From NCBI GenBank assembly GCA_003504275.1, contig DOAO01000006.1, forward strand, positions 66,588 through 130,587: 64,000 bases of DNA, in the 5' to 3' direction. The position numbers and the translations under genes were made by a program. How positions within the stretch are numbered: the stretch's first letter is position 1; each line of letters starts with the position of its first letter. Of this stretch, positions 6,197 to 54,346 are shown piece by piece. The notes beneath the pieces are model-generated. The model did no database searches, was not told the origin of the DNA, and was given only the letters and a program-made list of their open reading frames with translations. The DNA comes from Patescibacteria group bacterium (GTDB lineage: Bacteria > Patescibacteriota > Minisyncoccia > Phycocordibacterales > UBA12445).

Positions 6197-6289
6197 CTTT
6201 TACTATGAAAATTAAGTATTTTTTGTTACACTAGAACAGTCTTAAAAGACACACAATTTAGTTACCTAAGGTCTACTCAAAATAGATAC

Positions 6290-6443
6290 GGTACAAATAA
6301 ACCCCATCCCTGATACTGAACCCCGTGTTCAGCTACTCAGGGATGGGTCATTGTCGGGAAACTGATAATGGAGTCGCAAGGCTCAAGCTGGCACGGGGTT
6401 CTGTGCTTTCTCGGTCCAGCTTTATTAGACAAAACCCATCCCT
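6290..6443. other. GC-rich structured intergenic element with nested hairpins, flanked by the 12-nt direct repeats AAACCCCATCCC / AAAACCCATCCC. Candidate small ncRNA or MITE.
   Basis: CCATCCCTGA pairs with TCAGGGATGG. GAACCCCGTG pairs with CACGGGGTTC about 90 nt downstream. GC content is far above the surrounding AT-rich DNA. Confidence 0.4.
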
Positions 6444-6446
6444 TTT

Positions 6447-8204
6447 ATGTCTACAAACAAATTACAATCAATAGAAAAAGCTAAAGGTAGAGCTATGCTC
6501 GTATGGGCTGGCAAGAAGCCTTTAGAGAGCATTGAATACTATCCTGCTCAAGAGAAAGAAATATACGGCAACAAGAAGTCGCAAGATTTTAATAAATTAT
6601 TTTGGGGAGATAATCTCCAAGTTCTCGCACACTTACTAAAAGAGTATCGTGGTAAAGTTGATTTGATATATATAGACCCTCCGTTTGATAGCAAGGCGGA
6701 TTATGTTAAATCAGTAAAAATGAAAGGTGAAAAGGTTGAGGGGGTTGAGCAAGGACTGCTTGAAGAAAAACAGTATGGCGATATTTGGGAAAAGGATGAG
6801 TATCTTCAATTTATGTATGAGCGTTTTTTAATTTTGAAAGAACTTTTGTCTGAAAATGGAAGTATATATTTACATTGTGATTGGCATAAAAACTCCCATC
6901 TTCGCTTGTTAATGGATGAAGTATTCAGTGAAGATAATTTTAGAAATGAAATTATCTGGCATTATTTTGTATCTGGAAAATATCCAAGTGAGTTTGCAAA
7001 AGACCACGATAATATCTATGTATATTCAAAAAGTAAAAACTCCACATTTAACTATGAGAAACAAGTAGACAAATATCTATATTATGAAAAGTTTTACAAT
7101 AAACAAATTGTTAAAGGAAAGGATGGAAAAGAATACTATGAATATAATGGAGAATTAAGAACGTTTGAAAAACAGGTTTCTGAAACTTGGAATATAAATA
7201 AAATTAAAAGAGACGGCAAAGAAATTGTTGGCTATCCTACACAAAAACCAGAAGAATTACTAGAAAGAATAATTAAAGCATCTTCAAATGAGGGCGATGT
7301 GGTCCTTGATTGTTTTTGTGGCTCTGGAACCACGATGGTTACCGCTCAAAAATTAGGTCGCCGATGGATTGGATGCGACATAAATCTCGGAGCGATACAA
7401 ACCTCCACAAAACGCCTCAATCAGATTATTGAGGAGCAGAAAAATGCTCTCGGTTTCAAAGTGCTCAATGTGAATGAATATACAGCGTTCAAAAATGAAC
7501 TTGAAGCGAAAGATATTGTGATGGAAATGTATGGCGTGGAGCCAATGAAGCGAAGTTATTTTGACGGAGTGCTTGATACTTCGTATGTGAAAGTGATGCC
7601 AATGAACAGGGTCCTCAACAAGCTAGATATGAAAACCTTGCTCAAGAATGTGAATGACAAGCTCGCTGATTTTACAGTCAAAAAGAAGTCCAAATCTGGC
7701 GAGGCGGTGTATGACGAGGGTGTGCTTGTCATCTGCTCTGGTATGGACCTTGAAGTTGCCGACTATCTCAAAAAAGAGAACAAGACGGGCGTGAAGATTG
7801 ATGTCCGAGACATTGCCACAGACAAGAAAAATCTCGTCTTTAAGAAACCACCAGAGGCAAATATTGAGGTGAAAGTAAAAGACAAAAATCTCTCCGTGTC
7901 GCTCAAAGAGTTCTATTCGCCTATAATGATGCGAAAATTAGAGATTGAAAACAGTAAAGCTCTCAAGAAAGAATACCAAGCAAAAGTTGAAGATTTCCGC
8001 CAGATTATTGATAGCGTGGCTATTGATGTGGATTATACAGGCGACCTTTTTAATGCCGAGATTATGGACCTGCCGACAAAGCGTGAGCTCATCAAAGCTG
8101 ACTACTCTTGGGGATATCCAAAGAAAGGCAAATACACTGTGGCAGTCAAAATCGTGGATGTGCTTGGCGAGGAATACTTTGAAACTTTTAGAGTAAATGT
8201 ATAA
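6447..8204 (+). CDS. mod: Type III restriction-modification methyltransferase (Mod; beta-class N6-adenine/N4-cytosine MTase).
   Basis: Motif IV DLIYIDPPF precedes motif I VVLDCFCGSGTT by about 200 aa, leaving room for a target-recognition domain. It is followed by a helicase-nuclease Res gene. Confidence 0.85.
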   Translation: MSTNKLQSIEKAKGRAMLVWAGKKPLESIEYYPAQEKEIYGNKKSQDFNKLFWGDNLQVLAHLLKEYRGKVDLIYIDPPFDSKADYVKSVKMKGEKVEGVEQGLLEEKQYGDIWEKDEYLQFMYERFLILKELLSENGSIYLHCDWHKNSHLRLLMDEVFSEDNFRNEIIWHYFVSGKYPSEFAKDHDNIYVYSKSKNSTFNYEKQVDKYLYYEKFYNKQIVKGKDGKEYYEYNGELRTFEKQVSETWNINKIKRDGKEIVGYPTQKPEELLERIIKASSNEGDVVLDCFCGSGTTMVTAQKLGRRWIGCDINLGAIQTSTKRLNQIIEEQKNALGFKVLNVNEYTAFKNELEAKDIVMEMYGVEPMKRSYFDGVLDTSYVKVMPMNRVLNKLDMKTLLKNVNDKLADFTVKKKSKSGEAVYDEGVLVICSGMDLEVADYLKKENKTGVKIDVRDIATDKKNLVFKKPPEANIEVKVKDKNLSVSLKEFYSPIMMRKLEIENSKALKKEYQAKVEDFRQIIDSVAIDVDYTGDLFNAEIMDLPTKRELIKADYSWGYPKKGKYTVAVKIVDVLGEEYFETFRVNV

Positions 8205-8206
8205 AT

Positions 8207-8653
8207 ATGCAAAACGACACTATAAAAATAAGCAAACAACTCTTACACCAAGCCGAGCTGATGGGTGGAAATAGCGAATACGCTAAGGCTATTACAAAAC
8301 TCAACGAAGCAATCAACCATCTTGTCTATTTTTCACCACCAGAAGAGCAACAACACGAAAAAATATCGTTGTTACACCAGTGTTTCTTTGACGCAGGACG
8401 GTATCATTCTGAATTAAAACATTTTGCCACTGCGATAGAAAATTTCATTACAGCAAAGCTATTTGCTGTGTCAAAAGATAACACAGACCAATTAGATAGA
8501 TGGATTGACGGGTCTTTAGATGAGTATGAATTTTTGATACAGGAGCCAGCCACGAAAGATATCGCACTTTCTGAATTGGATGAATTGCAAGACAAATTGT
8601 TTAAAAATAACATACCCGTTCTACCTCGTATTGAGAAATTGTTAAAACAATAA
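8207..8653 (+). CDS. Hypothetical alpha-helical protein encoded between mod and res and translationally coupled to both.
   Basis: Its start is 3 nt after the mod stop. Its stop TAA overlaps the res ATG (TAATG). 148 aa, no known motif. Confidence 0.6.
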   Translation: MQNDTIKISKQLLHQAELMGGNSEYAKAITKLNEAINHLVYFSPPEEQQHEKISLLHQCFFDAGRYHSELKHFATAIENFITAKLFAVSKDNTDQLDRWIDGSLDEYEFLIQEPATKDIALSELDELQDKLFKNNIPVLPRIEKLLKQ

Positions 8654-11196
8654 TGGAAAATCTATTTTTACAGAGTATAAAAGTCAAAGTATCCGAGTGG
8701 CGAGAAAACGGGTATCAAGGAGGCTTCAAGGAGAGCATAAACATTTTGAACTATGTGAAGCGTGTCGGCTTTTTACACGAGCCACAAATTGAAGCTCTTG
8801 AAACTTATATCTATATCAAGGAGGTTTTGGAAAATAAGCCAACGGGTGAAATTTTCAAAGACGCTTTTTCAAAGAAATCCGATTTGCTTCGTTCTCTTGG
8901 TGTGCCAGAGAGAAATATTTCGGACATTATGGAAGCCGATAATCGTGACGAGCAAATAACTGAAATCATTAAGGAAAAGTTTGGTTCTCAAGATTACGCA
9001 AATCAAGTTTATGCTCTTACAATGGGTTCGGGTAAGACAATTTTAATGGCGACTTTTTTAATATACGATTTCGTTCTTTCATACTATCATCCAGACGATG
9101 CACGCTTTGCAAAGAATGCTCTAGTCTTTGCTCCCGATACGACCATTATAGAGAGCTTAAAAGAGATAAAAACTTTTGATTATTCAAGGGTCTTGCCAAA
9201 GGAATATCAGAATATTTTGCTTAACATTAAGTATCACTACCTAGAGAGCACGGAAACAGGGCTCTCTCCGATTGGTAATTACAATGTCATCGTTTCAAAC
9301 TCGCAAAAGATAATTCTCAAAACAAGAAATAGTGATACGGACAATGGGGTAAAAAAGTTATTTGGAGATAAGGGGGAACTAGCAAAGCGTGAAGTAGAAA
9401 ATGCCCGTCTGCGTGCTATCCGAGAGCTCAATAACCTCATTATATTTGTAGATGAAGCTCATCACTCTTATGGTGTGAACCTTGAGGGTGCTTTGAAAAA
9501 GACACGCCAAACAATTGATTACTTGCACGGCAATACTCCGCTTGTGGGTGTTGTAAATCTCACAGGAACACCATATCTCAATAACAGGATGATAGACGAT
9601 GTTGTATATCACTTTGGGCTCAAACAAGGTATAGAAAAAGGCATCTTGAAACAAGTGAAGATATTGGATTTCGGAGAGGTCCGCTCGGAGATTTTCATTG
9701 AAGAAGTGCTCTCTACATTCTGGTCCGAGTATGGAGAAAATCGCCTCGAAGGTCGTCTGCCTAAAATGGCTTTCTATGCTCCTAATATTGATAATTTACA
9801 AAATGAACTCAAGCCTCGTATTGAGAGAATTCTCGCTGAGATGGATATACCTATTGATAAAGTCCTTGAGTATCACACCGAAGCAGAAGACAGTAAAGAT
9901 GAGTTTCGAATACTTGATACTATAGATAGTAAGAAACAGTTTGTGCTTCTTGTTGGTAAGGGGACCGAAGGATGGAACTGTCGCTCATTGGTTGCTTGTG
10001 CTCTCTATCGTAAGCCATCTAGCTCAATTTTTGTGCTCCAAGCATCTACACGCTGTATGAGGTCCATTGGAGATAATTCTACACGAGCCCATATATTCCT
10101 CTCAAAAGAAAACTATAAGGTATTAGATAAAGAGCTTAAGAACAACTTTGCTTCAAGCATTCAAGACATCAACAACCAAGAGCAAAAGAGCTTCGAGTTT
10201 GAAATTAAAGTTGAAAAGAAAAAGACCATCAAGGTAAAAAAGCTCATCCGAGATATTATTTCCACACAGGCAACAAATACAGACGATATCAAGATTGATA
10301 TTAAGAAATATAAACCAGAGAAATACGAGCACTATATCTTGGGTTCAGAACTTGTTGTAGATACTTCTGGCAAGGCAATTTTTAAGCACGATACGCTTGG
10401 CTCAAAGAAAATAAAAGAGAGTAATTCATATACCTATTATGAAATCGTAGAGCTTATCAATCGCTACACACATTTGCCATGTTTAGCGATAGGTAAATTA
10501 TTGGAAAATATCGGATTGTCTAGGAATGAGCTAGCAAGTAAAGTGAATACGAGTGTGGGGTTTTTACCCTTCATTATTCAATCTGTTCTTGAAACTGTTT
10601 ATCAGTATACGGAAACAGAAACAGCTACCGAAGAAGAAATTGAACTTACTAAAGAATACCCGTTTAAGATGAGCCGAGAGGAGGGTAAAAAAGCCCTTGT
10701 TGTATTTAAAGAAAAAGAGGAAGCAGACGGAGCTACAAGTCGTATCGGTTTTCATATCAACCCTTATAATTTTGACAGTAGCGATGAACGGGACCTGTTC
10801 CGACAATTCCGACAGCTTCTGGTAGATAAAGAGACGATTAAGGATGTTTACTTTAATGGTGGAGTTACTACCATTGCTCACAATGATTTTTATGTTGAAT
10901 ATTGGAACCCTACAGAACAGCGTATATCCAAGTATTTTCCAGACTTTTTGATAGAAACTGATAAGGGTCGTTTCTTGGTTGTAGAGGTAAAATCTGGGTC
11001 CGAAAAGACAGAGTATGAAGCAAACAAGAAACGCTACAATGGGACCAACACATCACTCTTTAATGAGGTATATGCTAAAGAGGTTGGCTTCCTAGATTTT
11101 CAAAAAGTGAATAAGGATTTTGAATACAAAGTCATCTTTGACGCTCACTTGCAAGAAAGACAGCGAGAGCTCTTTGAGATGATTAGAACTCTGTAA
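8653..11196 (+). CDS. res: Type III restriction enzyme Res subunit (SF2 helicase plus C-terminal PD-(D/E)xK nuclease).
   Basis: Walker A is TMGSGKTILMATF. The DEAH box is IIFVDEAHHS. The C-terminal segment YFPDFLIETDKGRFLVVEVKSG matches PD...D/ExK. Confidence 0.85.
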   Translation: MENLFLQSIKVKVSEWRENGYQGGFKESINILNYVKRVGFLHEPQIEALETYIYIKEVLENKPTGEIFKDAFSKKSDLLRSLGVPERNISDIMEADNRDEQITEIIKEKFGSQDYANQVYALTMGSGKTILMATFLIYDFVLSYYHPDDARFAKNALVFAPDTTIIESLKEIKTFDYSRVLPKEYQNILLNIKYHYLESTETGLSPIGNYNVIVSNSQKIILKTRNSDTDNGVKKLFGDKGELAKREVENARLRAIRELNNLIIFVDEAHHSYGVNLEGALKKTRQTIDYLHGNTPLVGVVNLTGTPYLNNRMIDDVVYHFGLKQGIEKGILKQVKILDFGEVRSEIFIEEVLSTFWSEYGENRLEGRLPKMAFYAPNIDNLQNELKPRIERILAEMDIPIDKVLEYHTEAEDSKDEFRILDTIDSKKQFVLLVGKGTEGWNCRSLVACALYRKPSSSIFVLQASTRCMRSIGDNSTRAHIFLSKENYKVLDKELKNNFASSIQDINNQEQKSFEFEIKVEKKKTIKVKKLIRDIISTQATNTDDIKIDIKKYKPEKYEHYILGSELVVDTSGKAIFKHDTLGSKKIKESNSYTYYEIVELINRYTHLPCLAIGKLLENIGLSRNELASKVNTSVGFLPFIIQSVLETVYQYTETETATEEEIELTKEYPFKMSREEGKKALVVFKEKEEADGATSRIGFHINPYNFDSSDERDLFRQFRQLLVDKETIKDVYFNGGVTTIAHNDFYVEYWNPTEQRISKYFPDFLIETDKGRFLVVEVKSGSEKTEYEANKKRYNGTNTSLFNEVYAKEVGFLDFQKVNKDFEYKVIFDAHLQERQRELFEMIRTL

Positions 11197-11836: not shown

Positions 11837-11982
11837 GGGGGTTGTGAATTAAGTCCGTCATCCGCCTCGTGCGGTGGATTTGTCCGAAAGGGCAGAGGGT
11901 AGCGGTGAAAAGCGATAACTGGCTTACGGGTGTATCAAGAGTGTTACTCTGACAAAGAACTTCCATCTGTGGGAGTTTTTTG
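11837..11982 (+). ncRNA. Candidate structured small RNA: a GC-rich ~145-nt segment ending in a T-run. Identity is unknown; a weak resemblance to an SRP-RNA helix-8 core is not convincing.
   Basis: GC-rich island in AT-rich DNA. It contains GUCCGAAAGGGCAGAGG with a GNRA tetraloop and ends GGGAGTTTTTTG. No coding potential. Confidence 0.2.
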
Positions 11983-12115: not shown

Positions 12116-12374
12116 GTGGGCCGTAAGTAAGCAAACTTCTTTGCTTACGTCAGGACTCGAAAAGGCTCTCCCTTATTTCTGAAGATTTTTTAATCTGAAG
12201 AAATGGGAAGCCTATACCGTCCCCGTAGGGGAAGAGTCCTACCGTACAGGACTCGAAAGCCGCAGTCGGGCCCCTTGCTGAAAGCAAGGGAGACGAGGCG
12301 GGGTCGCGAGTACTTTGATTTATGTAAGGCGAAGCCGATACAGAAAGCTTAGTAACTCGTGACCGAGTCCTGTT
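12115..12374 (+). repeat. Two tandem copies, the first degenerate, of GC-rich repeat family A. The terminal inverted repeats are CAGGACTCG ... CGAGTCCTG and one end resembles a tRNA 3' end.
   Basis: The core GGGAGACGAGGCGGGGTCGCG matches GGGAGCTGAGGCGGGGTCGCG at 33640 and its reverse complement in the 51226-51770 array. AGTGGGCCGTAAG...CGTCAGGACTCGAA parallels the inverted tRNA-Ala 3' fragment at 33463. Confidence 0.6.
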
Positions 12375-12408: not shown

Positions 12409-12672
12409 TCAGTTCCCCTTGATTTTAAAATATCGTCTTAGTATTAAAACAACTCCCAAAGTAAAAAGCATGATGCCTAACACTTTATAATTAGTATGGT
12501 AATCAGTATACCCACCATAATTATCAAAGGGGTTGCATAGTCCCGAGCAGACATAATTAGCGGGGCGTAAAAAATTATATGAGAAAATTAAAACACCAAA
12601 GAGCACTAAACCATCTGGCAAATATTTTTTTATAATTGAAGGTAAGTTTTTCATATCTTTATTATTGTACAT
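12409..12672 (-). CDS. Small membrane protein (hypothetical).
   Basis: 87-aa ORF with two hydrophobic segments. Confidence 0.45.
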   Translation of the reverse strand: MYNNKDMKNLPSIIKKYLPDGLVLFGVLIFSYNFLRPANYVCSGLCNPFDNYGGYTDYHTNYKVLGIMLFTLGVVLILRRYFKIKGN

Positions 12673-12786
12673 TAATACGTGGCATAAGCCCAGGGTTGTT
12701 TGTTGTGTAATAAAACCCCCTGCCTTTTCCCTTCCCTCAAAACTTTTGCTATACTATTAAAATTAATTATTAGATAAAAGATATAT

Positions 12787-13461
12787 ATGGAGGTAGAAAA
12801 AACAAATAATAAAAACAAGATTATTGTCGCGGTGATTTTGGTTATTTTGGTGATAGGAGGCTATTTTTATTTTGGAGGCAATGATATGGGTGATAACGTG
12901 GCTGTTGTAAATGGTGAGAGTATATCCATGTCGACATACAATACTCAGTTAGACAGCGCTATTGCTCTATATAAATCGCAGGGCCTTGATATTACAAATG
13001 CGGACAATGTTTCTAGAATCAAAACAGAAGTTTTGGGTGGTCTTATAGATAATGAATTAGTATCACAAAAAATATTAGAGGCTGGAATAAAAATAAATTC
13101 AGAAGAAATAGAGAGACAATTCCAGTCAATTTTAACACAAACAGGTGGAATTGAGGGACTTAATGCTGAATTAGCTAAAAATAATATTACAGAGGAGCAG
13201 TTGCGAGAAAATATATCTAAACAACTTGCTGCTCAGGCATATCTGACACAAAATGTTGATATGAAATCAATAACCGTTAGCGACGATGAAGTTGTGCAAT
13301 TTTACTCAAATTATAGTAAGACCCAGGAGTCTGTACCGACACTAGAAGAAATCGGTGCTCAGATAAAACAGCAGATTGTTTTAAATAAACAACAGGCAAT
13401 GGTCAAAGAGTTTATTGCTTCTCTTAGGACAGGTGCAAAAATAGAAACAATAGCTATTTAA
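12787..13461 (+). CDS. Membrane-anchored SurA/PpiD N-terminal-domain-like chaperone protein.
   Basis: N-terminal transmembrane helix, then a helical region resembling the SurA_N / PpiD chaperone domain. No PPIase domain. Confidence 0.5.
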   Translation: MEVEKTNNKNKIIVAVILVILVIGGYFYFGGNDMGDNVAVVNGESISMSTYNTQLDSAIALYKSQGLDITNADNVSRIKTEVLGGLIDNELVSQKILEAGIKINSEEIERQFQSILTQTGGIEGLNAELAKNNITEEQLRENISKQLAAQAYLTQNVDMKSITVSDDEVVQFYSNYSKTQESVPTLEEIGAQIKQQIVLNKQQAMVKEFIASLRTGAKIETIAI

Positions 13462-20697: not shown

Positions 20698-20825
20698 GTC
20701 ATTGCGAAGCCGAAGGCTTGGCCGTCCACAGGTGTCGACGACGATTCCGTCGACCAATCCAGATTTATTTATGTTGAATTACTGGATTGCCACACCGAAG
20801 CTAAGACGCTTCGACTCGCAATGAC
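20698..20825. repeat. Family B MITE-like element with terminal inverted repeats GTCATTGCGA ... TCGCAATGAC and the internal inverted pair CAATCCAG / CTGGATTG.
   Basis: Same termini as the copies at 41289..41382 and 42503..42614. GC-rich. The overlapping ORF 20566..20874 is regarded as spurious. Confidence 0.7.
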
Positions 20826-26140: not shown

Positions 26141-26236
26141 CTGTAGGAATTTTTTCCCATGAATTTATTTCCTCTCAAGAAGTCTTCCCAGCCCATTTCT
26201 TTCTTTCCTTCGGGGGTTACTTTTTCGGGTACAAAC
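26141..26236 (-). pseudogene. Remnant duplicate of the fmt 3' end (direct repeat A of the pair that brackets the radical-SAM gene).
   Basis: About 72 nt are near-identical to fmt 28047..28118 (TTATTTCCYCTCAAGAAGTCTTCCCARCCCATTTCTTTCTTTCCTTCRGGRGTTACTTTTTCGGG). The minus-strand ORF 26014..26196 begins MGWEDFLRGNK, which is the fmt C-terminus. Confidence 0.75.
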
Positions 26237-26339: not shown

Positions 26340-28013
26340 ATGGAGACGTTACCAATAAGAGAAAAAAATAAGAAGGAAGAAATCGGGGATATACGAGATA
26401 TACACCCCAATGGATTGAATGATTTTTTTGAGAAACAATATAATTCCGGTGATTTGGAAAAATATCTTGATAAGATTGCCGAAGAACCTTCCGTTATTGC
26501 ACACATAAGTTATTGGGAAAAATACCTCAATCCAAAGTACAAAAATCTTTTTGAAGAAATGTATAAGGAAAAAGTGTTGCCAGAGATTAAAAATTCAGAA
26601 CTCCCCCTTGCTCTAGAGAAAAGGTTTTCCGAAAAAGAATTAAAAATGATTTTTGAAGACATCCAGACAATCCAATTGACATTTGGTTGTTCGAAAGGAT
26701 GTAAGTTTTGCGGATTAGATGCCGTGCCGGGCGTTAGTGATCACATACCATTTGAACAATTAAAAAATTTTTTTTCAAAATACGGCAAAGAGCTTTCTGT
26801 ATCCGAGCCATTTTTATATTATGCATCTGAGCCGGCCGACTACAGGTCTGAGGATAAGGAAGGAAGGGTTGTTGCTTATAAAGATGTTGAGGCACTTGCT
26901 CATGACAACTCGGGATATATTCCCACTATCACGACGAGGGAGATCAATGACGAATCGTGGTTAAATTTTTTGGGCGAAAGAACAAACAAGGAAGATGTTA
27001 GGGTAAGCGTTTATGGTAAGTTTAAGGATGTCGATATTCCCGATCAAATAGATGCGTCCAAAACTTTAATATACAAACATGACAAGATACCTCTCGGTAA
27101 GGATATTACCAGGGAAAATCAAGAGGGTTCATTGGTGGGAATAGGCTGTTTTGATGGGATTCTTGTGACCCCGCGGGGCATCTATAATGTTATGCAGATC
27201 CCTGTATCCATTGAATATCCCCAGGGACAAATGATCGTCCCTCTTCGGGAAATATCAAAAGAGCCGATATGCATAGGGCAGAGTTTTGAATCAGTTTTGT
27301 CGTGTGCAGTCCTACAGAATAATGTCGAATTATATGTTGATCGTTTTTTGATTAAGCCATATGTAACGGTTGAGACAGGGGCAGGGATGTTTGATATTGT
27401 TCTGGATAATGAACTTAATGTGAAAAATGTCATTCCTAGCGATGAAAAAGTTGAAGAGCTTATGGGCAGGATGGAACGCTTTAGGAAATTACGCAGAATT
27501 ATTATTTCTAAGGACAAACAAATATTAGTTGATTATCTAGGATCGTTAGAAGAAGGAGATGGGGAAGTTCTTGTCGAGATTTGTCACCAAATAAGCGGTA
27601 TGGAGATAGTTGATATTGAAGACAAGAATAAATTAGCTGAAAATTTAATTAGTTTGAGACGATTGGCATTCAATCGCATTAATATAAAAATTGGAGAATT
27701 TGAAGACGAAATTGGGGAATATTCTAAAAAACAAAAGGACAAATTGGGCCCAGGTTGGTTTGATAGTAGAGATTTCGTTTTGGGACCAAATAGTAATTTT
27801 TATGTGAATGCATCTCGCTCAATGATTCAAGTAGACAGCGATGGTAAAAAATATTTTAGATTAGAGCGACCTGGCGATGTAAATACAGCTGAAATACTCA
27901 TTTATCCCCCAGAAGGATTTAAATGGGAAAATGCAGGGGATTTTTGGAATATCAGGTTACTGTACGGGTCTAGAGTAAAGGTCAGGCTAATTGATAGCCA
28001 GAAAGATAAATAA
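26340..28013 (+). CDS. Radical SAM domain protein (557 aa) of unknown function.
   Basis: CxxxCxPhiC motif in LTFGCSKGCKFCGLD. Few other cysteines, so probably no SPASM or auxiliary cluster. Confidence 0.8.
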   Translation: METLPIREKNKKEEIGDIRDIHPNGLNDFFEKQYNSGDLEKYLDKIAEEPSVIAHISYWEKYLNPKYKNLFEEMYKEKVLPEIKNSELPLALEKRFSEKELKMIFEDIQTIQLTFGCSKGCKFCGLDAVPGVSDHIPFEQLKNFFSKYGKELSVSEPFLYYASEPADYRSEDKEGRVVAYKDVEALAHDNSGYIPTITTREINDESWLNFLGERTNKEDVRVSVYGKFKDVDIPDQIDASKTLIYKHDKIPLGKDITRENQEGSLVGIGCFDGILVTPRGIYNVMQIPVSIEYPQGQMIVPLREISKEPICIGQSFESVLSCAVLQNNVELYVDRFLIKPYVTVETGAGMFDIVLDNELNVKNVIPSDEKVEELMGRMERFRKLRRIIISKDKQILVDYLGSLEEGDGEVLVEICHQISGMEIVDIEDKNKLAENLISLRRLAFNRINIKIGEFEDEIGEYSKKQKDKLGPGWFDSRDFVLGPNSNFYVNASRSMIQVDSDGKKYFRLERPGDVNTAEILIYPPEGFKWENAGDFWNIRLLYGSRVKVRLIDSQKDK

Positions 28014-28030: not shown

Positions 28031-28909
28031 TTATTGTAGAGGGATTTTATTTCCCCTCAAGAAGTCTTCCCAACCCATTTCTTTCTTTCCTTCAGGAGTT
28101 ACTTTTTCGGGAATGAATCTGTCGTTCTCTATTTTTGCTTTAGTTATTTTTACGCGCATTTCCTTGTCGCGAATATTTAAAATTGTGAAAGTCCCTGGGT
28201 CTGGATTTAGCGCCCTGACCTTTCTTTCTGCCTCAATAATTTTTTCTCTAGAAACATTATCTGAAGTTATAATTTCAGATTCTATGAAGCCGTCTTTTTT
28301 GTCTATTTTTTTACAGTAGGTAGCCGCCCCGTGGTCTTGTTGTTTGGGTTCTATCTCACCATTTATATAAGAGGGAATAGACTCACAAAGAATTTTTCCT
28401 CCGACTTCGCCGAGTTTTTCTTCTAGTTCACTGTAGGATAAATTTTCTGAATTTATTTTTTCTGTCTTTAAGATTGGCCCATGGTCCATTTCTTCGTCTA
28501 GGAGCATTATCGAAACACCCGTCTCTTTTGCGCCTTCTAATATTGCCGATTGTATTGGGCTAGGACCTCGTAAGTGTGGAAGAAGCGAAGGATGTACATT
28601 AAGGATGCCATATTTTGGAATATTCAATATTCTTTTTGGGACAAGTTTTCCGTATGCGGCTAAAATGAATATTTCATAATCGCCGTCAATTTCAAAATCC
28701 TTTAAACTTTTTGGTTGGAACACCTCAATGCCTCTTTTAACCGCCCATTCTTTAACTGGCGGAGGAGTAAGGACGAGATGCCTTCCTTTTGGCTTATCTG
28801 GCGAAGTTACGATTTTGTCTGGTAGGAAACCACATGCTTCAAGTTGGTCTAAAATAATAACCGCAAAGTGCGGTGTTCCAAAAAAGACGAATTTTGGTTT
28901 AGTGTTCAT
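28031..28909 (-). CDS. fmt: Methionyl-tRNA formyltransferase.
   Basis: FFGTPHFAV at the N-terminus and HPSLLPHLRGPSPIQ. Last gene of the conserved priA-def-fmt operon. Confidence 0.9.
   Translation of the reverse strand: MNTKPKFVFFGTPHFAVIILDQLEACGFLPDKIVTSPDKPKGRHLVLTPPPVKEWAVKRGIEVFQPKSLKDFEIDGDYEIFILAAYGKLVPKRILNIPKYGILNVHPSLLPHLRGPSPIQSAILEGAKETGVSIMLLDEEMDHGPILKTEKINSENLSYSELEEKLGEVGGKILCESIPSYINGEIEPKQQDHGAATYCKKIDKKDGFIESEIITSDNVSREKIIEAERKVRALNPDPGTFTILNIRDKEMRVKITKAKIENDRFIPEKVTPEGKKEMGWEDFLRGNKIPLQ
28047..28118. repeat. Direct repeat B: the fmt 3' coding end, duplicated at 26165..26236.
   Basis: About 72-nt match with 4 mismatches to repeat A. Confidence 0.75.
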
Positions 28910-31516: not shown

Positions 31517-32755
31517 ATGGTAAGTCTTTCTAAGTCCAAAAAAGATAATAAAGAAAAGCCCCCAAAGAGGGTTTTTGTCGGAATGTCCGGAGGAGTAGAT
31601 TCTTCTGTGTCCGCAGCTCTTTTAAAAGAGGCTGGTTTCGAAGTGATAGGCGTTTTTATTAAAGTTTGGTCTCCTGACTGGCTTCCATGTGATTGGCGAG
31701 AAGAGAGACGTGATGCTATGAGATGTGCAGCTATACTTGAAATACCCCTACTTACTTTAAATTTAGAAAAAGAATACAAAGAGGAGGTTGTGGATTATAT
31801 GATTCGCGAATACAAGGCGGGTCGTGTTCCAAACCCGGATGTTATGTGTAATCGAACTGTTAAGTTTGGCGGTTTTTTTAAAGAAGCGATGAATATGGGA
31901 GCTGATTTTGTGGCGACCGGTCATTATGCGAGAACAAGGGGGGTTGATGGTAAAAGTATTGATAGTGCATCCTCCTTATCGTCATCCGCCCGGATGAATG
32001 CGTTCATCCATTCGGACGGGTTGCGAGGGCGAGGCGTCCTAGCCGAAGACCGTGGCAATCAAATTAAAAATTCAAAAGTTAAATACAATTTACTTGCAGG
32101 GGTTGATGGTAACAAAGACCAGTCATATTTCTTATGGACACTCAAGCAGGAGCAATTATCAAAAACACTATTTCCTGTCGGTCATTTTAAAAAAGAAGAA
32201 GTGAGAGTCGTTGCGGAGAAATTCGGACTTCCGACAGCAACAAAGAAAGATAGTCAGGGATTATGCTTCTTGGGAAAGATAGATGTTAAAGACTTTTTGA
32301 AAAGATATATAAATGTTAAAAGCGGGAAAGTTCTTAATGAAAAAGGGGAAACAGTAGGAGTGCATGACGGTGCCGTGCTATATGCGATAGGAGAGAGACA
32401 CGGTTTTTCTATTGAGAACAAAAAACCAGATGACGCACCTTATTATATTGTGGGTAAGGATATTAAGAAAAATACTTTAGTTGTTTCTAATAATAAGAGT
32501 TTTGGAAAGTCGGCTCAAAAAGAAATAGAAATAGGGGATTTGAATTGGATCAAAGGTGTCTCCCCTCTTAAAAATAAAAAATATTCAGCCAGGATCAGAT
32601 ATAGAGAAGAACTCAAGAATTGTAAAATAAAAAATATATCGCCTAAAAAGGCAACTATTGTTTTTGATGAACCAGAAGAATCCGTCTCGTTCGGGCAATC
32701 TCTCGTCCTTTATGACGGAGATGTGTGTCTCGGCGGGGGCGTAATAAATAAATAG
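31517..32755 (+). CDS. mnmA: tRNA 2-thiouridylase MnmA carrying a ~45-aa in-frame insertion. The ORF-track start 31391 overlaps priA and is probably an extension.
   Basis: PP-loop VFVGMSGGVDSS. ATGHYAR, DGKS, then extra residues before the conserved NKDQSYFLW. Confidence 0.85.
   Translation: MVSLSKSKKDNKEKPPKRVFVGMSGGVDSSVSAALLKEAGFEVIGVFIKVWSPDWLPCDWREERRDAMRCAAILEIPLLTLNLEKEYKEEVVDYMIREYKAGRVPNPDVMCNRTVKFGGFFKEAMNMGADFVATGHYARTRGVDGKSIDSASSLSSSARMNAFIHSDGLRGRGVLAEDRGNQIKNSKVKYNLLAGVDGNKDQSYFLWTLKQEQLSKTLFPVGHFKKEEVRVVAEKFGLPTATKKDSQGLCFLGKIDVKDFLKRYINVKSGKVLNEKGETVGVHDGAVLYAIGERHGFSIENKKPDDAPYYIVGKDIKKNTLVVSNNKSFGKSAQKEIEIGDLNWIKGVSPLKNKKYSARIRYREELKNCKIKNISPKKATIVFDEPEESVSFGQSLVLYDGDVCLGGGVINK
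31975..32060. repeat. GC-rich family B-related element fragment inserted in frame within mnmA.
   Basis: GCGAGGGCGAGGCGTCCTAGCCGAAGACCGTGGCAATC shares GAGGCGTCCTAGCCGA and GTGGCAATC with the element at 42503..42614. It shares GCGAGGGCGAGGCGTC, in reverse complement, with 41289..41382. It contains a GGATGAATGCGTTCATCC hairpin. Confidence 0.6.
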
Positions 32756-33349: not shown

Positions 33350-33422
33350 GGGCCGTTAGCTCACTTGGTAGAGCGCATCCATGGCATGGATGAGGTAGCA
33401 GGTTCGATCCCTGTACGGTCCA
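33350..33422 (+). tRNA. tRNA-Ala (anticodon GGC).
   Basis: Cloverleaf inferred by hand. Acceptor GGGCCGT/ACGGTCC with G3:U70, D-stem GCTC/GAGC, anticodon stem CATCC/GGATG with loop AUGGCAU, T-arm GCAGGTTCGATCCCTGT, discriminator A. CCA is not encoded. Confidence 0.8.
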
Positions 33423-33464: not shown

Positions 33465-33690
33465 CAGTGGACCGTAAGCAAAGCATTTTAAATGCTTTGC
33501 GTCAGGGATCGAAAAGCTTTTGAGCATTTTTTGGAGTGCTTTTGCACGAATAAAAAATCCAAAAGGTATACTGCCGCCGTAGGCGGAGATCCCTAAGATC
33601 GAAAGCCGGAAGCGGGACCCATTCTGTAAGAATGGGAGCTGAGGCGGGGTCGCGCAAAATTTTCGAAGAAAATTTATGCGTGACCGATCC
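33463..33690. repeat. Inverted fragment of the tRNA-Ala 3' end (with a hairpin insert), followed by a family A GC-rich repeat unit at about 33597-33690.
   Basis: AGTGGACCGTAAG[hairpin]CGTCAGGGATCGAA is the reverse complement of TTCGATCCCTG...ACGGTCCAC. The unit ATCGAAAGCCGGAAGCGGGACCCATTCTGTAAGAATGGGAGCTGAGGCGGGGTCGCG...GTGACCGATCC is repeated in reverse orientation in the 51226-51770 array. Confidence 0.65.
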
Positions 33691-33860
33691 CCATATGCCT
33701 CCACAAAATAATAGAACAACCGCACGGGGGTTGACCCCGTAGTAGAATTTTGGCTCAAAAAATATTTACAATATTTTTTATGATTACGGGGTAATCAAGC
33801 CGAAATTTCACTACGGGGTTGACTCATAAAAGGCTTTTTGTTAGTATGTCCTTCATGTTA

Positions 33861-41288: not shown

Positions 41289-41382
41289 TGTCATTGCGAA
41301 CGAAGTGAAGCAATCCAGATTGTGTTGTAAAAAAAGCTAGATTGCCACGTGCTTCGGCTAAGACGCCTCGCCCTCGCAATGA
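41289..41382. repeat. Family B MITE-like element (GTCATTGCGA ... TCGCAATGAC).
   Basis: GTCATTGCGAACGAAGTGAAGCAATCCAG...CTAGATTGCCACG...CCTCGCAATGAC. Confidence 0.7.
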
Positions 41383-41425
41383 CGATAAGGAGAATACGCT
41401 ATTTATAATTTTTAATTCTTAAAAA

Positions 41426-42502: not shown

Positions 42503-42614
42503 GTCATTGCGAGATCGACGGAGATTAACGTCGACAGCCGATGGGGATTAACATCGGCACTTGTAGACAGCCCGTAGACGGCCGAGGCGTCCTAGCCGAG
42601 TTGTGGCAATCCAG
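42503..42614. repeat. Family B element half-copy (GTCATTGCGAG ... GTGGCAATCCAG).
   Basis: Shares the left terminus and the CAATCCAG with the other copies. Contains GAGGCGTCCTAGCCGAG, which is also found inside mnmA. Confidence 0.65.
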
Positions 42615-43752: not shown

Positions 43753-43815
43753 CTGTCCCGTAGTGTAATTTGGCAATTTTTTGGCGATAGCCGTTGCCAA
43801 ATTCTACTACCGGGA

Positions 43816-51225: not shown

Positions 51226-51770
51226 GGGAAGAGAATCGATCACAACTCTTTTGCTTCGCAAAAGGTCGCAGCCCCGCCTCAGCTCCCATTCTTGCAGATA
51301 GCCGCGGGAGGAATCGGTCACAAACAAATCAGTTTGTGCCACGGAGAAGAATCGGTCACAGATATTTTGCTTCGCAAAATTCCGCGACCCTGCCTACCGG
51401 CAGGCAGGCCCGCCTCAGCTCCCGTTCTTGCAGAACGGGTCCCGCTTCCGGCTTTCGATTCTGATTTTTGCACTACAAAAATCATGTCGTAAGATTTAGC
51501 GCAACGAAGTTGTACTAAATTTACGACGCGTCCCGCTGGGCCGTGGGTATGTCGCGGGAGGTAATCGGTCACGAGTAGACTTGCTCCGCAAATCTCTCTC
51601 GGCCCCAGCTCAGCTCCCATTCAGCCGCGGGAGGAACCGGTCACAAGTTCCGCCTTTGGCGGACTCGCGACCCCAGCCTCGCATTCTGCTACGCAGAATA
51701 TGCTCCGGCTTTTCGATTCTCTCACGCAAGGTGTGCAGACACCTTGCTCCGCGGCACAAATTAAAAAACC
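51226..51770 (-). repeat. Array of four or more degenerate GC-rich family A repeat units adjacent to tRNA-Leu. The units end in tRNA-3'-end-like segments (GCCGCGGGAGGAATCGGTCAC versus the tRNA end GCCGCGGGAGAGAATCGAACTC).
   Basis: CGCAGCCCCGCCTCAGCTCCCATTCTTGCAGA is the reverse complement of the unit at 33620-33660. GGCTTTCGAT and AATCGGTCAC recur. The five overlapping ORFs predicted here in all frames are regarded as spurious. Confidence 0.65.
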
Positions 51771-51796: not shown

Positions 51797-51880
51797 TGCC
51801 GCGGGAGAGAATCGAACTCTCATGACCTTGCGATCGATAGATTTTGAGTCTATTGCGTCTACCAATTCCGCCACCGCGGC
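51797..51880 (-). tRNA. tRNA-Leu (anticodon CAA), class II with a 15-nt variable arm.
   Basis: Cloverleaf inferred by hand. GCCGCGG acceptor, GCGGAATTGGTAGACGC D-arm, anticodon loop CUCAAAA, T-arm GAGAGTTCGATTCTCTC. A bidirectional terminator hairpin CCAGCAGAAGCTGG lies downstream. Confidence 0.8.
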
Positions 51881-52243: not shown

Positions 52244-54346
52244 TTAAACTATTTTTAAATTTGGATACTTTTTTCTGAGTTCTTTTCCTTCGTTATAAGG
52301 GATTTGGTCGAGAAAAATATATCCACCCGCTGTTTCAGGTAGTTTCAACCCCTCAGAGGACTGGAGACTGCTAAGATTAAGATTACCACCCACTGTTTTA
52401 GGTAGCTTCAATCCTTCTGCTGATAGGAGATTGCTGAGATAAAGATTACCACCCACTGCTTCAGGTAGCTTTAACCCTTCGGCGGATTGGAGGCTACTGA
52501 GGTAAATATCACCATTTATTGTTTCTGTTAGTTTCAACCCTTCAGCGGATTCTAGACTACTGAGATTAAGATTACCGCCCACTGTTTCCGGTAGTTCCAA
52601 TCCTTCAGCGGATTCTAGACTACGGAGATCAAGAGATCCACCCACTGCTTCAGGTAACTTCAATCCTTCGGCGGATTGAAGATCGTTTAGATTAAGATTA
52701 CCACCCACTGTTTCCGGTAGTTCCAATCCTTCAGCGGATTCTAGACTACGGAGATCAAGAGATCCACCCACTGCTTCAGGTAACTTCAATCCTTCTGCTG
52801 ATAGGAGATTGCTGAGATAAAGATTACCACCCACTGCTTCAGGTAGCCTCAATCCTTCGGCAGATTTTAGACTACTGAGATCAAGGCTAGTACCCACTGC
52901 TTCAGGTAGCTTCAATCCTTCGGCAGATTTTAGACTACTGAGATCAAGGTGTTCGCCTATTTTTTCTGGAAGTTCCAATCCTTCTGCAAAACGGAGGCCA
53001 CGAAGAGACAACCCTCTACCGATTATTTTCGGTAATTTCAAATCTTTGGCAGATTCTAGCCCATCAAGACTAAGACTACCACTTATTCTTTCTATAAATT
53101 TCAATCTGTTAATCGACTCAATTTTATAAAGACGAAGACCGCCGTAATGAAACTTAATTCCTTCACACATAGCTTCCTTTTCTGTGCCTATACTAATTTC
53201 TTCTTCAAGATAACCGGTTATCGAAGAGAGGTCTGCTTTAATTTTCCTACCTTTCGTTATCTCCTCAGTCCTTGGATCTTCTCCATATCCAAACCCTTCA
53301 ATCCTTGAATCTAGCTGATACAAAAAGGTAAGATCGTCTTTCGTCAGTTCTTCTCCTTTTGCTTTTTTCTTGTCTATCTCGGTAAGCTTCTTCATATCTC
53401 TCTCTTTCTTTTCATACTTCGCGCCGTCGGGAAATTCCTTAAGCTTACTCTTTACAACCTCACCAATATATGGATCGAGATTTTGTTCTTTAGCGATACC
53501 TCTCACTTCTCCAATTTTTGAATCACTCATACGAATAGCAACCCTGGGGATAGTGGGCTTACCTTGTTTATCGTTGGAGTAATAGACATAGAAGTCTCCG
53601 CCTTCAAGTTGAATTTTGGCTGTTGATTCTCCTGCAGTACACCATCCGGTACCATGACCTTGGAGTGATTCTACGAGTGGCATGTGATCAGATTTCTGAG
53701 GATATTTAATCCACCTTCCTTCAGTGTTCAGTAATTCATTCTCTTCTGTCGGTGTTACTTTTTCGATAGCATAGGCGTAGAGTTTACCGAAGTTTGAACC
53801 TTCAAGAAGTTTCTTAAATTCAGGATTATTTTCTATGTCCGGTATTTCTTCATTACCGGCTTTTTTGACAATGGCATCTACTACATAGGCGAGTGCTTCG
53901 CGATTGAGATCGGGAAATGGAGCGACAGTACCTTTATCTCTCTTACCAAAGGCATGTTTCTCTTTGTCGAAGGTAGATAGCTTGAGCATATTATTAAATG
54001 CCCAGTATTTAGCCCACATAGGATAACTATCTGAATCAGGAGAGGAGAGGTAATTGACCCAATTGTCTAATGTAGAGTTTTGGTCATTGATGATTACTTC
54101 GCTCAGCTGTTCTTTTGTCTCGTCGGTAATCTCAATATCGCCGTGTCCTTGTTCACGAGCTAATCTTTTTTGATTGTCATAATAGCTTTCAGGAATGTCT
54201 TCTGGTTTAATGACATATTCTTTGTGATAATGTTCCTTGATTCTTTCTAATACTCTAGGGTCATCTCTATGTCCTGTGTGAGTTCTTTTGATGACTTCTA
54301 GGAAGTCAGAGATCTTGTCTATCGGTTTTTTGTGAGATTTCTTCAC
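52244..54346 (-). CDS. Leucine-rich-repeat protein with about 12 tandem 23-aa LRR units (L.L..L.SAEGLKLPEAVGG.L) in the C-terminal half and a unique N-terminal domain.
   Basis: The repeats are read directly from the translation. No signal peptide is obvious. Confidence 0.7.
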   Translation of the reverse strand: MKKSHKKPIDKISDFLEVIKRTHTGHRDDPRVLERIKEHYHKEYVIKPEDIPESYYDNQKRLAREQGHGDIEITDETKEQLSEVIINDQNSTLDNWVNYLSSPDSDSYPMWAKYWAFNNMLKLSTFDKEKHAFGKRDKGTVAPFPDLNREALAYVVDAIVKKAGNEEIPDIENNPEFKKLLEGSNFGKLYAYAIEKVTPTEENELLNTEGRWIKYPQKSDHMPLVESLQGHGTGWCTAGESTAKIQLEGGDFYVYYSNDKQGKPTIPRVAIRMSDSKIGEVRGIAKEQNLDPYIGEVVKSKLKEFPDGAKYEKKERDMKKLTEIDKKKAKGEELTKDDLTFLYQLDSRIEGFGYGEDPRTEEITKGRKIKADLSSITGYLEEEISIGTEKEAMCEGIKFHYGGLRLYKIESINRLKFIERISGSLSLDGLESAKDLKLPKIIGRGLSLRGLRFAEGLELPEKIGEHLDLSSLKSAEGLKLPEAVGTSLDLSSLKSAEGLRLPEAVGGNLYLSNLLSAEGLKLPEAVGGSLDLRSLESAEGLELPETVGGNLNLNDLQSAEGLKLPEAVGGSLDLRSLESAEGLELPETVGGNLNLSSLESAEGLKLTETINGDIYLSSLQSAEGLKLPEAVGGNLYLSNLLSAEGLKLPKTVGGNLNLSSLQSSEGLKLPETAGGYIFLDQIPYNEGKELRKKYPNLKIV
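52300..53010 (-). repeat. Tandem 69-bp repeats that encode the LRR units. They are not CRISPR.
   Basis: Near-identical 69-nt periodic units lie within the CDS, for example GATTACCACCCACTG(T/C)TTC(A/C)GGTAG(C/T)T(T/C)CAATCCTTC(A/G/T)GC(G/T)GAT. There are no separate spacers. Confidence 0.8.

Follow-up and report, generated by a model that had tools for sequence, protein, structure and literature searches.

The question raised by the locus described here is how a GC-rich segment came to lie, in frame, inside a conserved housekeeping gene of a Patescibacteria group bacterium. The stretch analysed, referred to as the window, is 64,000 nucleotides (nt) long and corresponds to positions 66,588 to 130,587 of contig DOAO01000006.1 (assembly GCA_003504275.1). 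The gene is mnmA, and an earlier note based on the letters of the window had proposed that it carries a palindromic repeat which adds a peptide to the enzyme, in the manner of the Rickettsia palindromic elements (RPEs). This interpretation is supported in outline. The extra segment is homologous to a repeat, it is absent from close relatives, the reading frame runs through it, and the catalytic motifs of the enzyme are intact. It is quite probable that one unit of a dispersed GC-rich hairpin repeat was copied into the mnmA coding sequence, where it is read through in frame.

The mnmA gene and its inserted segment

The gene occupies positions 31517-32755 of the window (+ strand) and encodes a tRNA 2-thiouridine(34) synthase of 412 amino acids (aa), whose best matches are named MnmA and belong to Candidatus Paceibacterota and Parcubacteria. 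The host is a Paceibacterota genome of the candidate phyla radiation (CPR). A protein identical to the window MnmA (P0001) carries the Pfam families PF03054, PF20259 and PF20258, and a phmmer search against the Protein Data Bank gave E = 2.5e-90. The gene order priA-mnmA ... rpsP, khpA, M16 peptidase, rpmF, nusB, rnc, sigma factor, DUF8128, mltG is common to the contigs of the closest relatives. As had been proposed, the reading frame is preserved: it continues through all 412 aa with neither stop nor frameshift. Alignments show that positions invariant among 120 MnmAs are all kept in the window protein (the PP-loop SGGVDS at S24-S29, Cys111 and Cys250). Two records of the European Nucleotide Archive, L013 and L014, contain the identical mnmA (0 mismatches in 1239 nt); they equal the window throughout, except for scaffold gaps, and may share sample or reads with it.

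The inserted repeat unit is 99 nt or 33 codons long (31962-32060, + strand), encodes approximately residues 149-182 (DSASSLSSSARMNAFIHSDGLRGRGVLAEDRGN), is absent from the related loci L001, L003, L005 and L006, and is homologous to intergenic copies. Its GC content is 58.6%, as compared to 37.9% for the remainder of mnmA; the window has 37.8%, and the genome is given as 38%. The earlier note had described a GC-rich insert of about 135 nt and 45 residues. The GC-rich extra segment is real, while the part derived from the repeat is limited to the 99 nt, which encode 33 of the ~45 additional residues. The ~12 others, counted relative to the relatives with the shortest loops, represent an older AT-rich loop extension that does not come from the repeat and is shared in kind by P0002, P0005 and P0010. 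It is gene-native on both sides of the unit. Its left part (31946-31961, + strand, GKSI.) aligns with the loop extension of P0005, P0002 and P0010, and in its right part (32061-32089, + strand,.IKNSKVKYN) the sequence AAAGTTAAATACAAT aligns with AAAGTTAAATATAAT of L001.

Four modules could be distinguished in the unit, all on the + strand. At its left end is the extension ATAGTGCATCCTCCTTATC (31962-31980), located outside the GTCAT terminus. It is followed by GTCAT itself (31981-31985), which multiple alignment identifies as the first half of the family terminus GTCATTGCGAG, split in this copy. Between GTCAT and TGCGAG lies a nested 35-nt module, CCGCCCGGATGAATGCGTTCATCCATTCGGACGGG (31986-32020), which folds as a hairpin, is absent from the copy at 41290 and is identical in the copy of L012, a contig found in a metagenome scan. 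The remaining part is the core TTGCGAGGGCGAGGCGTCCTAGCCGAAGACCGTGGCAATC (32021-32060). The inner hairpin reported previously, GGATGAA-TGCG-TTCATCC with 7 bp, was found in the insert.

Similarity to other copies extends over all these modules. In the multiple alignment, the right arm of the 41290 copy, together with ~19 nt past its GTCAT terminus (ATAGYGYATYCTCCTTATC), aligns with the mnmA segment, so that the insert is homologous to window positions 41340-41402 in reverse complement. The core is 93% complementary to 41340-41379 over 40 nt (blastn E=3.5e-10) and matches L007 at 90% and L003 at 87.5%. Positions 31952-31985 are 82% complementary to 41379-41412, which is DNA beyond the terminus of that copy, and 32030-32046 is an exact 17-nt match to 42583-42599. 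The relationships to the 41290 and 42503 copies claimed at the outset are thus confirmed. The closest counterpart is L012 10008-10089, identical to window 31962-32043 at 97.6% over 82 nt (E = 8e-34), nested hairpin included. The extension follows the terminus at four other loci: window 41384-41402, L003 12300-12318, L007 ~5650-5670 and L012 10008-10026. Because the same extension follows the terminus at different loci, it belongs to the repeat and not to flanking DNA.

The insert is a single unit, or half element. The view that mnmA contains a complete palindrome bounded by terminal inverted repeats did not hold, as what is present is one 99-nt unit with a single, split terminus. Deleting the 99 nt keeps the frame open (...GVDGKSIEIKNSKVKYNLLAGVDGN...) and leaves the peptide GKSIEIKNSKVKYN, which resembles the P0005 loop KGKIESKGLKVKYNLLAGVD. 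The unit is stop-free in two of its six frames, and mnmA reads one of those two; an open frame by itself is therefore weak evidence of selection. Rfam detected no family on any mnmA insert, in the window at the gathering threshold and in four insert-bearing loci at E <= 1. A known ribozyme or riboswitch was rejected as an identity for the mnmA insert, since Rfam returned just generic hairpin matches to miRNA models.

The repeat family outside mnmA

Three further copies are present in the window, all of them intergenic. A full palindromic copy lies between a small open reading frame (ORF) and the 3' end of rnr (20698-20825, + strand); it has both termini and a fold with z = -6.2. Another full palindromic copy, with extension, is located upstream of mltG (41290-41402, + strand, fold z = -3.3), and its right arm, inverted, is the closest relative of the mnmA unit in the window. 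A copy consisting of a single unit (GTCATTGCGAG...GTGGCAATCCAG) lies downstream of mltG (42503-42614, + strand). Of the three places named in the earlier note, 20698-20825 and 42503-42614 are retained, the latter with one terminus only, and 41289-41382 is corrected to 41290-41383. The copies at 41290 and 42503 do flank mltG (41426/41453-42481) on its two sides, as had been noticed.

Full copies are bounded by GTCATTGCGA...TCGCAATGAC. The terminus GTCATTGCGA was located on the plus strand at 20698, 41290 and 42503, and on the minus strand at 20816-20825 and 41374-41383. Searched for with at most one mismatch, the terminus pattern gave 7 hits, compared to 2.9 expected, and none of 100 shuffles reached 7. 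Two further matches were discarded: a 10-mer terminus match in L001 lies in the gene of an S41 peptidase, where it is native coding sequence (GEALAMTVG) and not an insert, and the 11-mer CGTCATCCGCC at 11856 was set aside as probably a chance match within a possible noncoding RNA region.

Units of the family have the general layout (ATAGYGYATYCTCCTTATC)-GTCAT-TGCGAG, followed by variable hairpin modules and GYGGCAATC(CAG). Units occur singly, as inverted pairs forming long palindromes, and in clusters. Altogether, ~13 family copies were found in ~150 kb of the window and related genomes, and the mnmA copy is the sole one within a gene. This abundance, together with the 97.6% match in L012, shows that the sequence shared between the insert and the intergenic copies is not due to chance. 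L012 was the sole match when metagenome contigs were scanned with the MnmA protein, and it was matched via the insert peptide. Its copy is intergenic, between pilB-like and pilT-like genes, and at least 5 family copies occur in its 20 kb. The copy in L007 is located upstream of recO. In a collection of genome contigs that does not hold the window's own genome, the family core pattern was found in 2 copies, both in the Patescibacteria metagenome-assembled genome RA.bin60; viral contigs gave 0 matches to the family core.

L012 also contains, at 12656-12960, several units (CGTCATTG...GCAATYC) in direct orientation within 300 nt, an arrangement resembling bacterial interspersed mosaic elements (BIMEs). 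This cluster shows that the family also amplifies locally.

Filled and empty sites in related genomes

The closest mnmA orthologues are 76-81% identical in alignment. Between the motifs TGHY and KDQSYF, the loop comprises 62 aa in the window protein as compared to 19 aa in P0003, P0006 and P0007, and the loops of P0002 and P0005 are AT-rich and 29-33 aa long. The DNA alignment has a clean gap opposite the insert in all four relatives (L001, L003, L005 and L006). The insertion is thus lineage-specific, as had been predicted. The P0002 genome is informative regarding age: its mnmA is without the insert, yet an orthologous family copy is present upstream of mltG (L003 12215-12318). For this reason, the repeat family predates the split of the two lineages, and the mnmA copy is younger.

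Two other kinds of repetition were observed in the loop. Medium loops of close relatives are composed of short AT-rich tandem motifs, AAAGTC in three copies (L001 10412-10510, P0005) and AAGAATTACGAATT in two copies (L003 2470-2556, P0002); the mnmA loop therefore also grows by simple-repeat slippage. In the window, the entire variable loop is enclosed by exact 14-nt direct repeats, GGGGTTGATGGTAA, the left of which (31940-31953, + strand) encodes GVDGK and the right (32099-32112, + strand) GVDGN. The left copy is missing in relatives. A local template switch or a duplication is a possible origin of this pair.

Predicted effect on the protein

In a phmmer comparison with solved structures, residues 15-145 of the window MnmA align to residues 8-141 of 2hma, and residues 191-411 to 144-364. 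Solved MnmAs therefore hold 2 residues where the window protein has 45. The insert is positioned in the N-terminal catalytic domain, between ATGHYAR and LLAGxDxNKDQSYF. The AlphaFold2 model has a mean predicted local distance difference test (pLDDT) of 88.8 and a predicted template modelling score of 0.86. In this model, the extra segment sits between strands 138-142 and 190-194, with pLDDT <50 at residues 160-178, and the remainder matches 2hma and 2det with a target-normalised template modelling score of 0.90-0.91 (Foldseek). The insert is accordingly predicted to form a hydrophilic, disordered surface loop of 33 residues at the tip of a beta-hairpin, with the MnmA fold otherwise intact. Loops of up to 67 aa, carried at the same site by other intact MnmAs, show that this position tolerates inserts.

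Long loops at the same site in other MnmAs

Loop statistics cover those 118 of the 120 listed homologues whose two flanking motifs could both be found. The TGHY-KDQ loop spans 15-67 aa and reaches at least 35 aa in 36 of the 118 (~30%). In a neighbour-joining tree, as well as by pairwise identity, sequences with long loops are dispersed among sisters whose loops are short. Loop length is intrinsically hypervariable in this phylum.

Besides the window, six long loops were read as DNA, at the site equivalent to window 31928-32113, and all six contain hairpin-forming inserts: L009 5875-5943, L010 10409-10527, L011 10406-10582, L015 5340-5462, L016 4266-4386 and L017 1454-1574. These loci were chosen for long MnmA loops, a source of ascertainment bias. 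Folded alone, five of the inserts gave -46 to -81 kcal/mol with z = -8.3 to -12.4. L011 is weaker; the value for its complete 177-nt loop is -61.6 kcal/mol, and, ranking as best among the 130-nt windows of its gene, it has z = -2.8. The loop is the most stable 130-nt window in 7/7 long-loop genes and is not so in 4 short-loop genes. In a scan for palindromes with stems of at least 16 nt, which missed the inserts of L011 and L015, the mnmA insert was the sole long-stem, large-loop palindrome in 2.5-21 kb at L009, L010, L016 and L017. A test for palindromes based on peptides only was positive at p <= 0.05 for 10 of the 36 long loops, and this test has low power and misses imperfect hairpins verified in DNA.

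The six inserts are unrelated to the family in the window and mostly to one another, and represent at least 3 further families, or at least 4 with that of the window. An element of ~125 nt that folds with a three-way junction is common to L015 5336-5464, L016 4262-4390 and L017 1452-1576, all on the + strand. It is present in L010 10403-10533 on the - strand, in reverse orientation and full length, and is open in frame both ways. Compensatory changes affect 25 of its 45 base pairs, and the MnmAs of the lineages that share it are merely 60-65% identical. A second copy of the inserts at these other loci was not found in the 253 kb examined, and the core of the L015-17 element had 0 matches in viral contigs. 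Recent transfer of the loop as a cassette is not indicated, as sliding-window identity revealed flanks in L010, L015, L016 and L017 that are no more similar than the remainder of the gene. These observations suggest a hot spot at the mnmA site, which targeting, selection or an unusual degree of tolerance would account for. The stronger proposal, in which hairpin-forming DNA has a dedicated hot spot at the beta-hairpin tip of MnmA across Paceibacterota, maintained by homing or selection beyond tolerance, is possible, and we consider it doubtful.

Origin of the insert and alternative explanations

If a unit of the dispersed family was copied into mnmA, its 99 nt would have been read in a stop-free frame, so that the gene stayed open, and the enzyme would have gained a 33-residue peptide, probably disordered, at the tip of a beta-hairpin in its N-terminal domain. 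As in the RPE case, translation would include the insert, and the enzyme would tolerate it as a passenger, be it selfish or neutral. Its arrival may be placed after the split from the P0002 and P0003 lineages, and its donor was probably an intergenic copy like that in L012. A transposase encoded at another place, and able to recognise hairpins, is a candidate for having mobilised the unit in trans; alternatively, the unit may have been copied from repeat to repeat by template switching or recombination.

Several points weigh against this explanation. Inserted at random, the unit keeps the ORF open in two of six combinations of orientation and phase, or about one third. No target-site duplication accompanies the mnmA insert (flanks ...AAAAGTATTG and AAATTAAAAATTC...), nor was one found at the copies in L012, L007 and L003. 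The second family terminus is absent from the mnmA copy, which has one split terminus and ends on its other side in GGCAATC, and this copy folds weakly (z = -1.4) in comparison with the full intergenic ones. Pfam scans found no transposase and no REP-associated tyrosine transposase (RAYT; Y1_Tnp) in 38 of the 41 window ORFs of at least 120 aa, the other three being mnmA, smc and rnr, which had already been identified, and the window being part of the genome. Transposition of the unit is consequently not demonstrated, given that a target-site duplication, a second terminus and a transposase or RAYT among the window ORFs are all missing. The insert peptide had 0 matches in a phmmer search of 1.84 billion representatives and in a word-index search, both of low power at 41-42 aa. 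The 64-kb window and related loci of ~90 kb yielded one intragenic copy only, so that a habit of entering many genes, as in RPEs, is unsupported. Finally, translation of the insert and activity of MnmA are what we infer from the sequence.

Other explanations of the insert can be set against the same evidence. The insertion may have damaged mnmA, leaving a pseudogene in the making or a crippled enzyme whose frame is open by luck. A unit whose length is a multiple of 3 and which is stop-free in 2/6 frames allows for such luck in about one of three random insertions; this explanation is nevertheless improbable in view of 412 codons without frameshift or stop, the retention of the PP-loop, Cys111, Cys250 and all invariant positions, the confident MnmA fold of the model with the insert extruded as a loop, and the many intact MnmAs that bear still longer inserts there. 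We regard it as very improbable that the insert is not translated, being removed from the mRNA or bypassed by the ribosome. GC-rich hairpin elements called byp are bypassed in some yeast mitochondrial genes, and a GC-rich hairpin-forming segment inside a coding region of an AT-rich genome would suit such a process, as would the very stable hairpins inserted at the mnmA site elsewhere. Skipping would not, however, maintain open frames, and stops or frame breaks are absent from 7/7 inserts read as DNA as well as from 36 long loops read as protein. Carriers would mostly look broken, yet all 120 listed matches cover at least 94% of the query, and no signature of an intron, intein or ribozyme was found, 99 nt being too short for group I or II introns. 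Hypervariability of the loop in the phylum, and the ~12 extra residues that are indeed older and not from the repeat, fit an ordinary lineage-specific expansion of the loop; this, or an assembly chimera, each unrelated to repeats, is hardly credible next to 82 nt at 97.6% identity to the intergenic copy in L012, 40 nt at 93% to an intergenic repeat in the window itself, and the abrupt change of GC at the insert boundaries. Both are also opposed by the identical sequence in three assembly records, which may derive from one sample.

An explanation of another kind holds that the site is the main story. The beta-hairpin tip would be a landing pad, or a hairpin or a basic, hydrophilic peptide would be favoured there, through mRNA regulation or extra contacts with tRNA. 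This is compatible with copying from the dispersed family, and the window insert would then be one targeted or selected instance and not a random, tolerated hit. It is consistent with loops of at least 35 aa at the exact site in 36 of 118 proteins, among short-loop sisters, with hairpins in all six other loops read as DNA and the most stable window falling on the loop in 7/7 genes, and with the insert as the sole large palindrome at four of the six other loci. The three-way-junction element, present in both orientations with 25/45 pairs compensated and without a second copy in 253 kb, points in the same direction. The window insert, in turn, folds weakly as a hairpin and comes from a family that is abundant between genes, and the closest relatives are without it. 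At least 4 unrelated sequence families at the site argue against a single conserved function, no Rfam family was assigned to any insert, compensatory changes are expected anyway from palindromic mobile DNA or from template-switch correction between arms, and the loci were picked for long loops. Taken together, we find it rather unlikely that the site is the main story.

Comparison with known repeat elements

RPEs (Ogata et al. 2000; summarised in PMC10969869 and PMC3184786) insert in frame in dozens of protein genes of Rickettsia. Small repeats in frame within protein genes also include ERIC/YPAL, the Bordetella BRE, the pneumococcal RUP, BOX and SPRITE, and the Coxiella QMITEs (PMC10969869, PMC3184786, PMC5896051). 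BRE is found inside ~9 Bordetella genes, and EnhC has 33 C-terminal residues contributed by QMITE2 (PMC3184786, PMC5896051, PMC10969869). In common with RPEs, the family described here consists of repeats of ~100-150 nt dispersed in a small genome, intergenic and in frame within a housekeeping gene, and the added peptide occupies a fold-compatible position, in our case according to the AlphaFold2 model. By analogy, the element in the window would work like an RPE and belong to the class of peptide-adding repeats. The host, however, is a member of Paceibacterota/CPR, an unrelated phylum, and the likeness is one of function. Further differences are one intragenic copy instead of dozens of affected genes, an intragenic copy that is a single unit of a modular family with nested hairpin modules, and an insertion site at which related lineages repeatedly have other elements. 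To our knowledge, recurrent occupation of one site by different elements has not been described for RPEs.

Repetitive extragenic palindromic sequences (REPs) are extragenic by definition, have a conserved 5' tetranucleotide of the GTAG type and are linked to RAYT transposases. REPs and BIMEs resemble the family in their short, GC-rich, imperfect hairpin units, which are single, in inverted pairs or in clusters, and almost always between genes. Unlike in REPs, the terminus here is GTCAT, one unit lies within a gene, and no RAYT was found in the 64-kb window. The family, with its shuffled hairpin modules, is organised more like REP/BIME than like a classical MITE (miniature inverted-repeat transposable element). 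Bacterial MITEs in ORFs are comparable as non-autonomous repeats with terminal inverted repeats, sometimes in frame with or inside protein genes; they differ in that no target-site duplication and no parent insertion sequence were found in the window, and in the one terminus of the mnmA copy. From the original description of an RPE-like, peptide-adding MITE, the analogy to RPEs can be kept, as a dispersed GC-rich hairpin repeat is in frame within a predicted surface loop, whereas the term MITE is undemonstrated, the second terminus and target duplication being absent. Palindromic amphipathic repeat coding elements (PARCELs) are similar in their dyad-symmetric coding DNA, from which related peptides can be read either way: here, either strand of the inner hairpin encodes MNAFI, and the inserts of L010 and L016 are the same element read in opposite orientations. 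PARCELs are, however, tandem 25-residue domains of membrane and surface proteins and not single hairpin units in a housekeeping enzyme. Literature searches returned no relevant report of such elements in Patescibacteria/CPR, nor of the family terminus.

Other features of the window

Two further repeat families were noticed. The second GC-rich family (e.g. ...GGGAGCTGAGGCGGGGTCGCG) is found at 12205-12319, 33565-33658 and 51253-51715 and has no Rfam match; two of its clusters are located directly downstream of tRNA genes, at 33350-33422 (+ strand) and 51797-51880 (- strand). A third, small hairpin repeat (CCCGTAGT..AATTTGGC.., also inverted) is intergenic at 33734-33819 and 43757-43813. In addition, about ten tandem copies of a 63-nt (21-codon) repeat occupy 52247-53113 within an ORF of 591 aa (52247-54019, - strand) without a Pfam family.

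A 69-nt direct repeat, 93% identical between its copies (26161-26229 and 28043-28111), flanks an ORF of 557 aa (26340-28010) with a weak radical-SAM match. The right copy is the 3' end of fmt, and in syntenic relatives the S41 peptidase gene runs directly to fmt. The arrangement looks like a cassette of ~1.9 kb inserted with duplication of the fmt end. An Rfam LOOT RNA (RF03000) was detected at 6263-6384 (+ strand), with 53.1 bits as compared to the gathering threshold of 46.4; it adjoins genes of a DNA methylase and a ResIII helicase (6447-11193).

Significance

In-frame selfish repeats that add peptides are textbook knowledge in the case of Rickettsia and were also recorded from a few Proteobacteria and Firmicutes; CPR genomes are small, streamlined and thought to be poor in mobile DNA. 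The mnmA locus is an unusually clean case, combining filled and empty sites, a near-identical intergenic copy of the donor type, a unit of exactly 33 codons and a predicted surface loop. It shows that repeats of a REP-like kind are able to reshape a conserved housekeeping enzyme in CPR bacteria. Inserts of this kind make proteins look more divergent than they are, and they can lead astray the annotation of marker genes or their alignment for phylogenetics. If the pattern holds, recurrent hairpins in the MnmA loop pose a new, testable question of insertion-site specificity as opposed to selection on a feature of the mRNA or protein. Were the site a dedicated hot spot, either small elements would home to this codon position, or structure or peptide would be selected inside an essential tRNA-modification gene.

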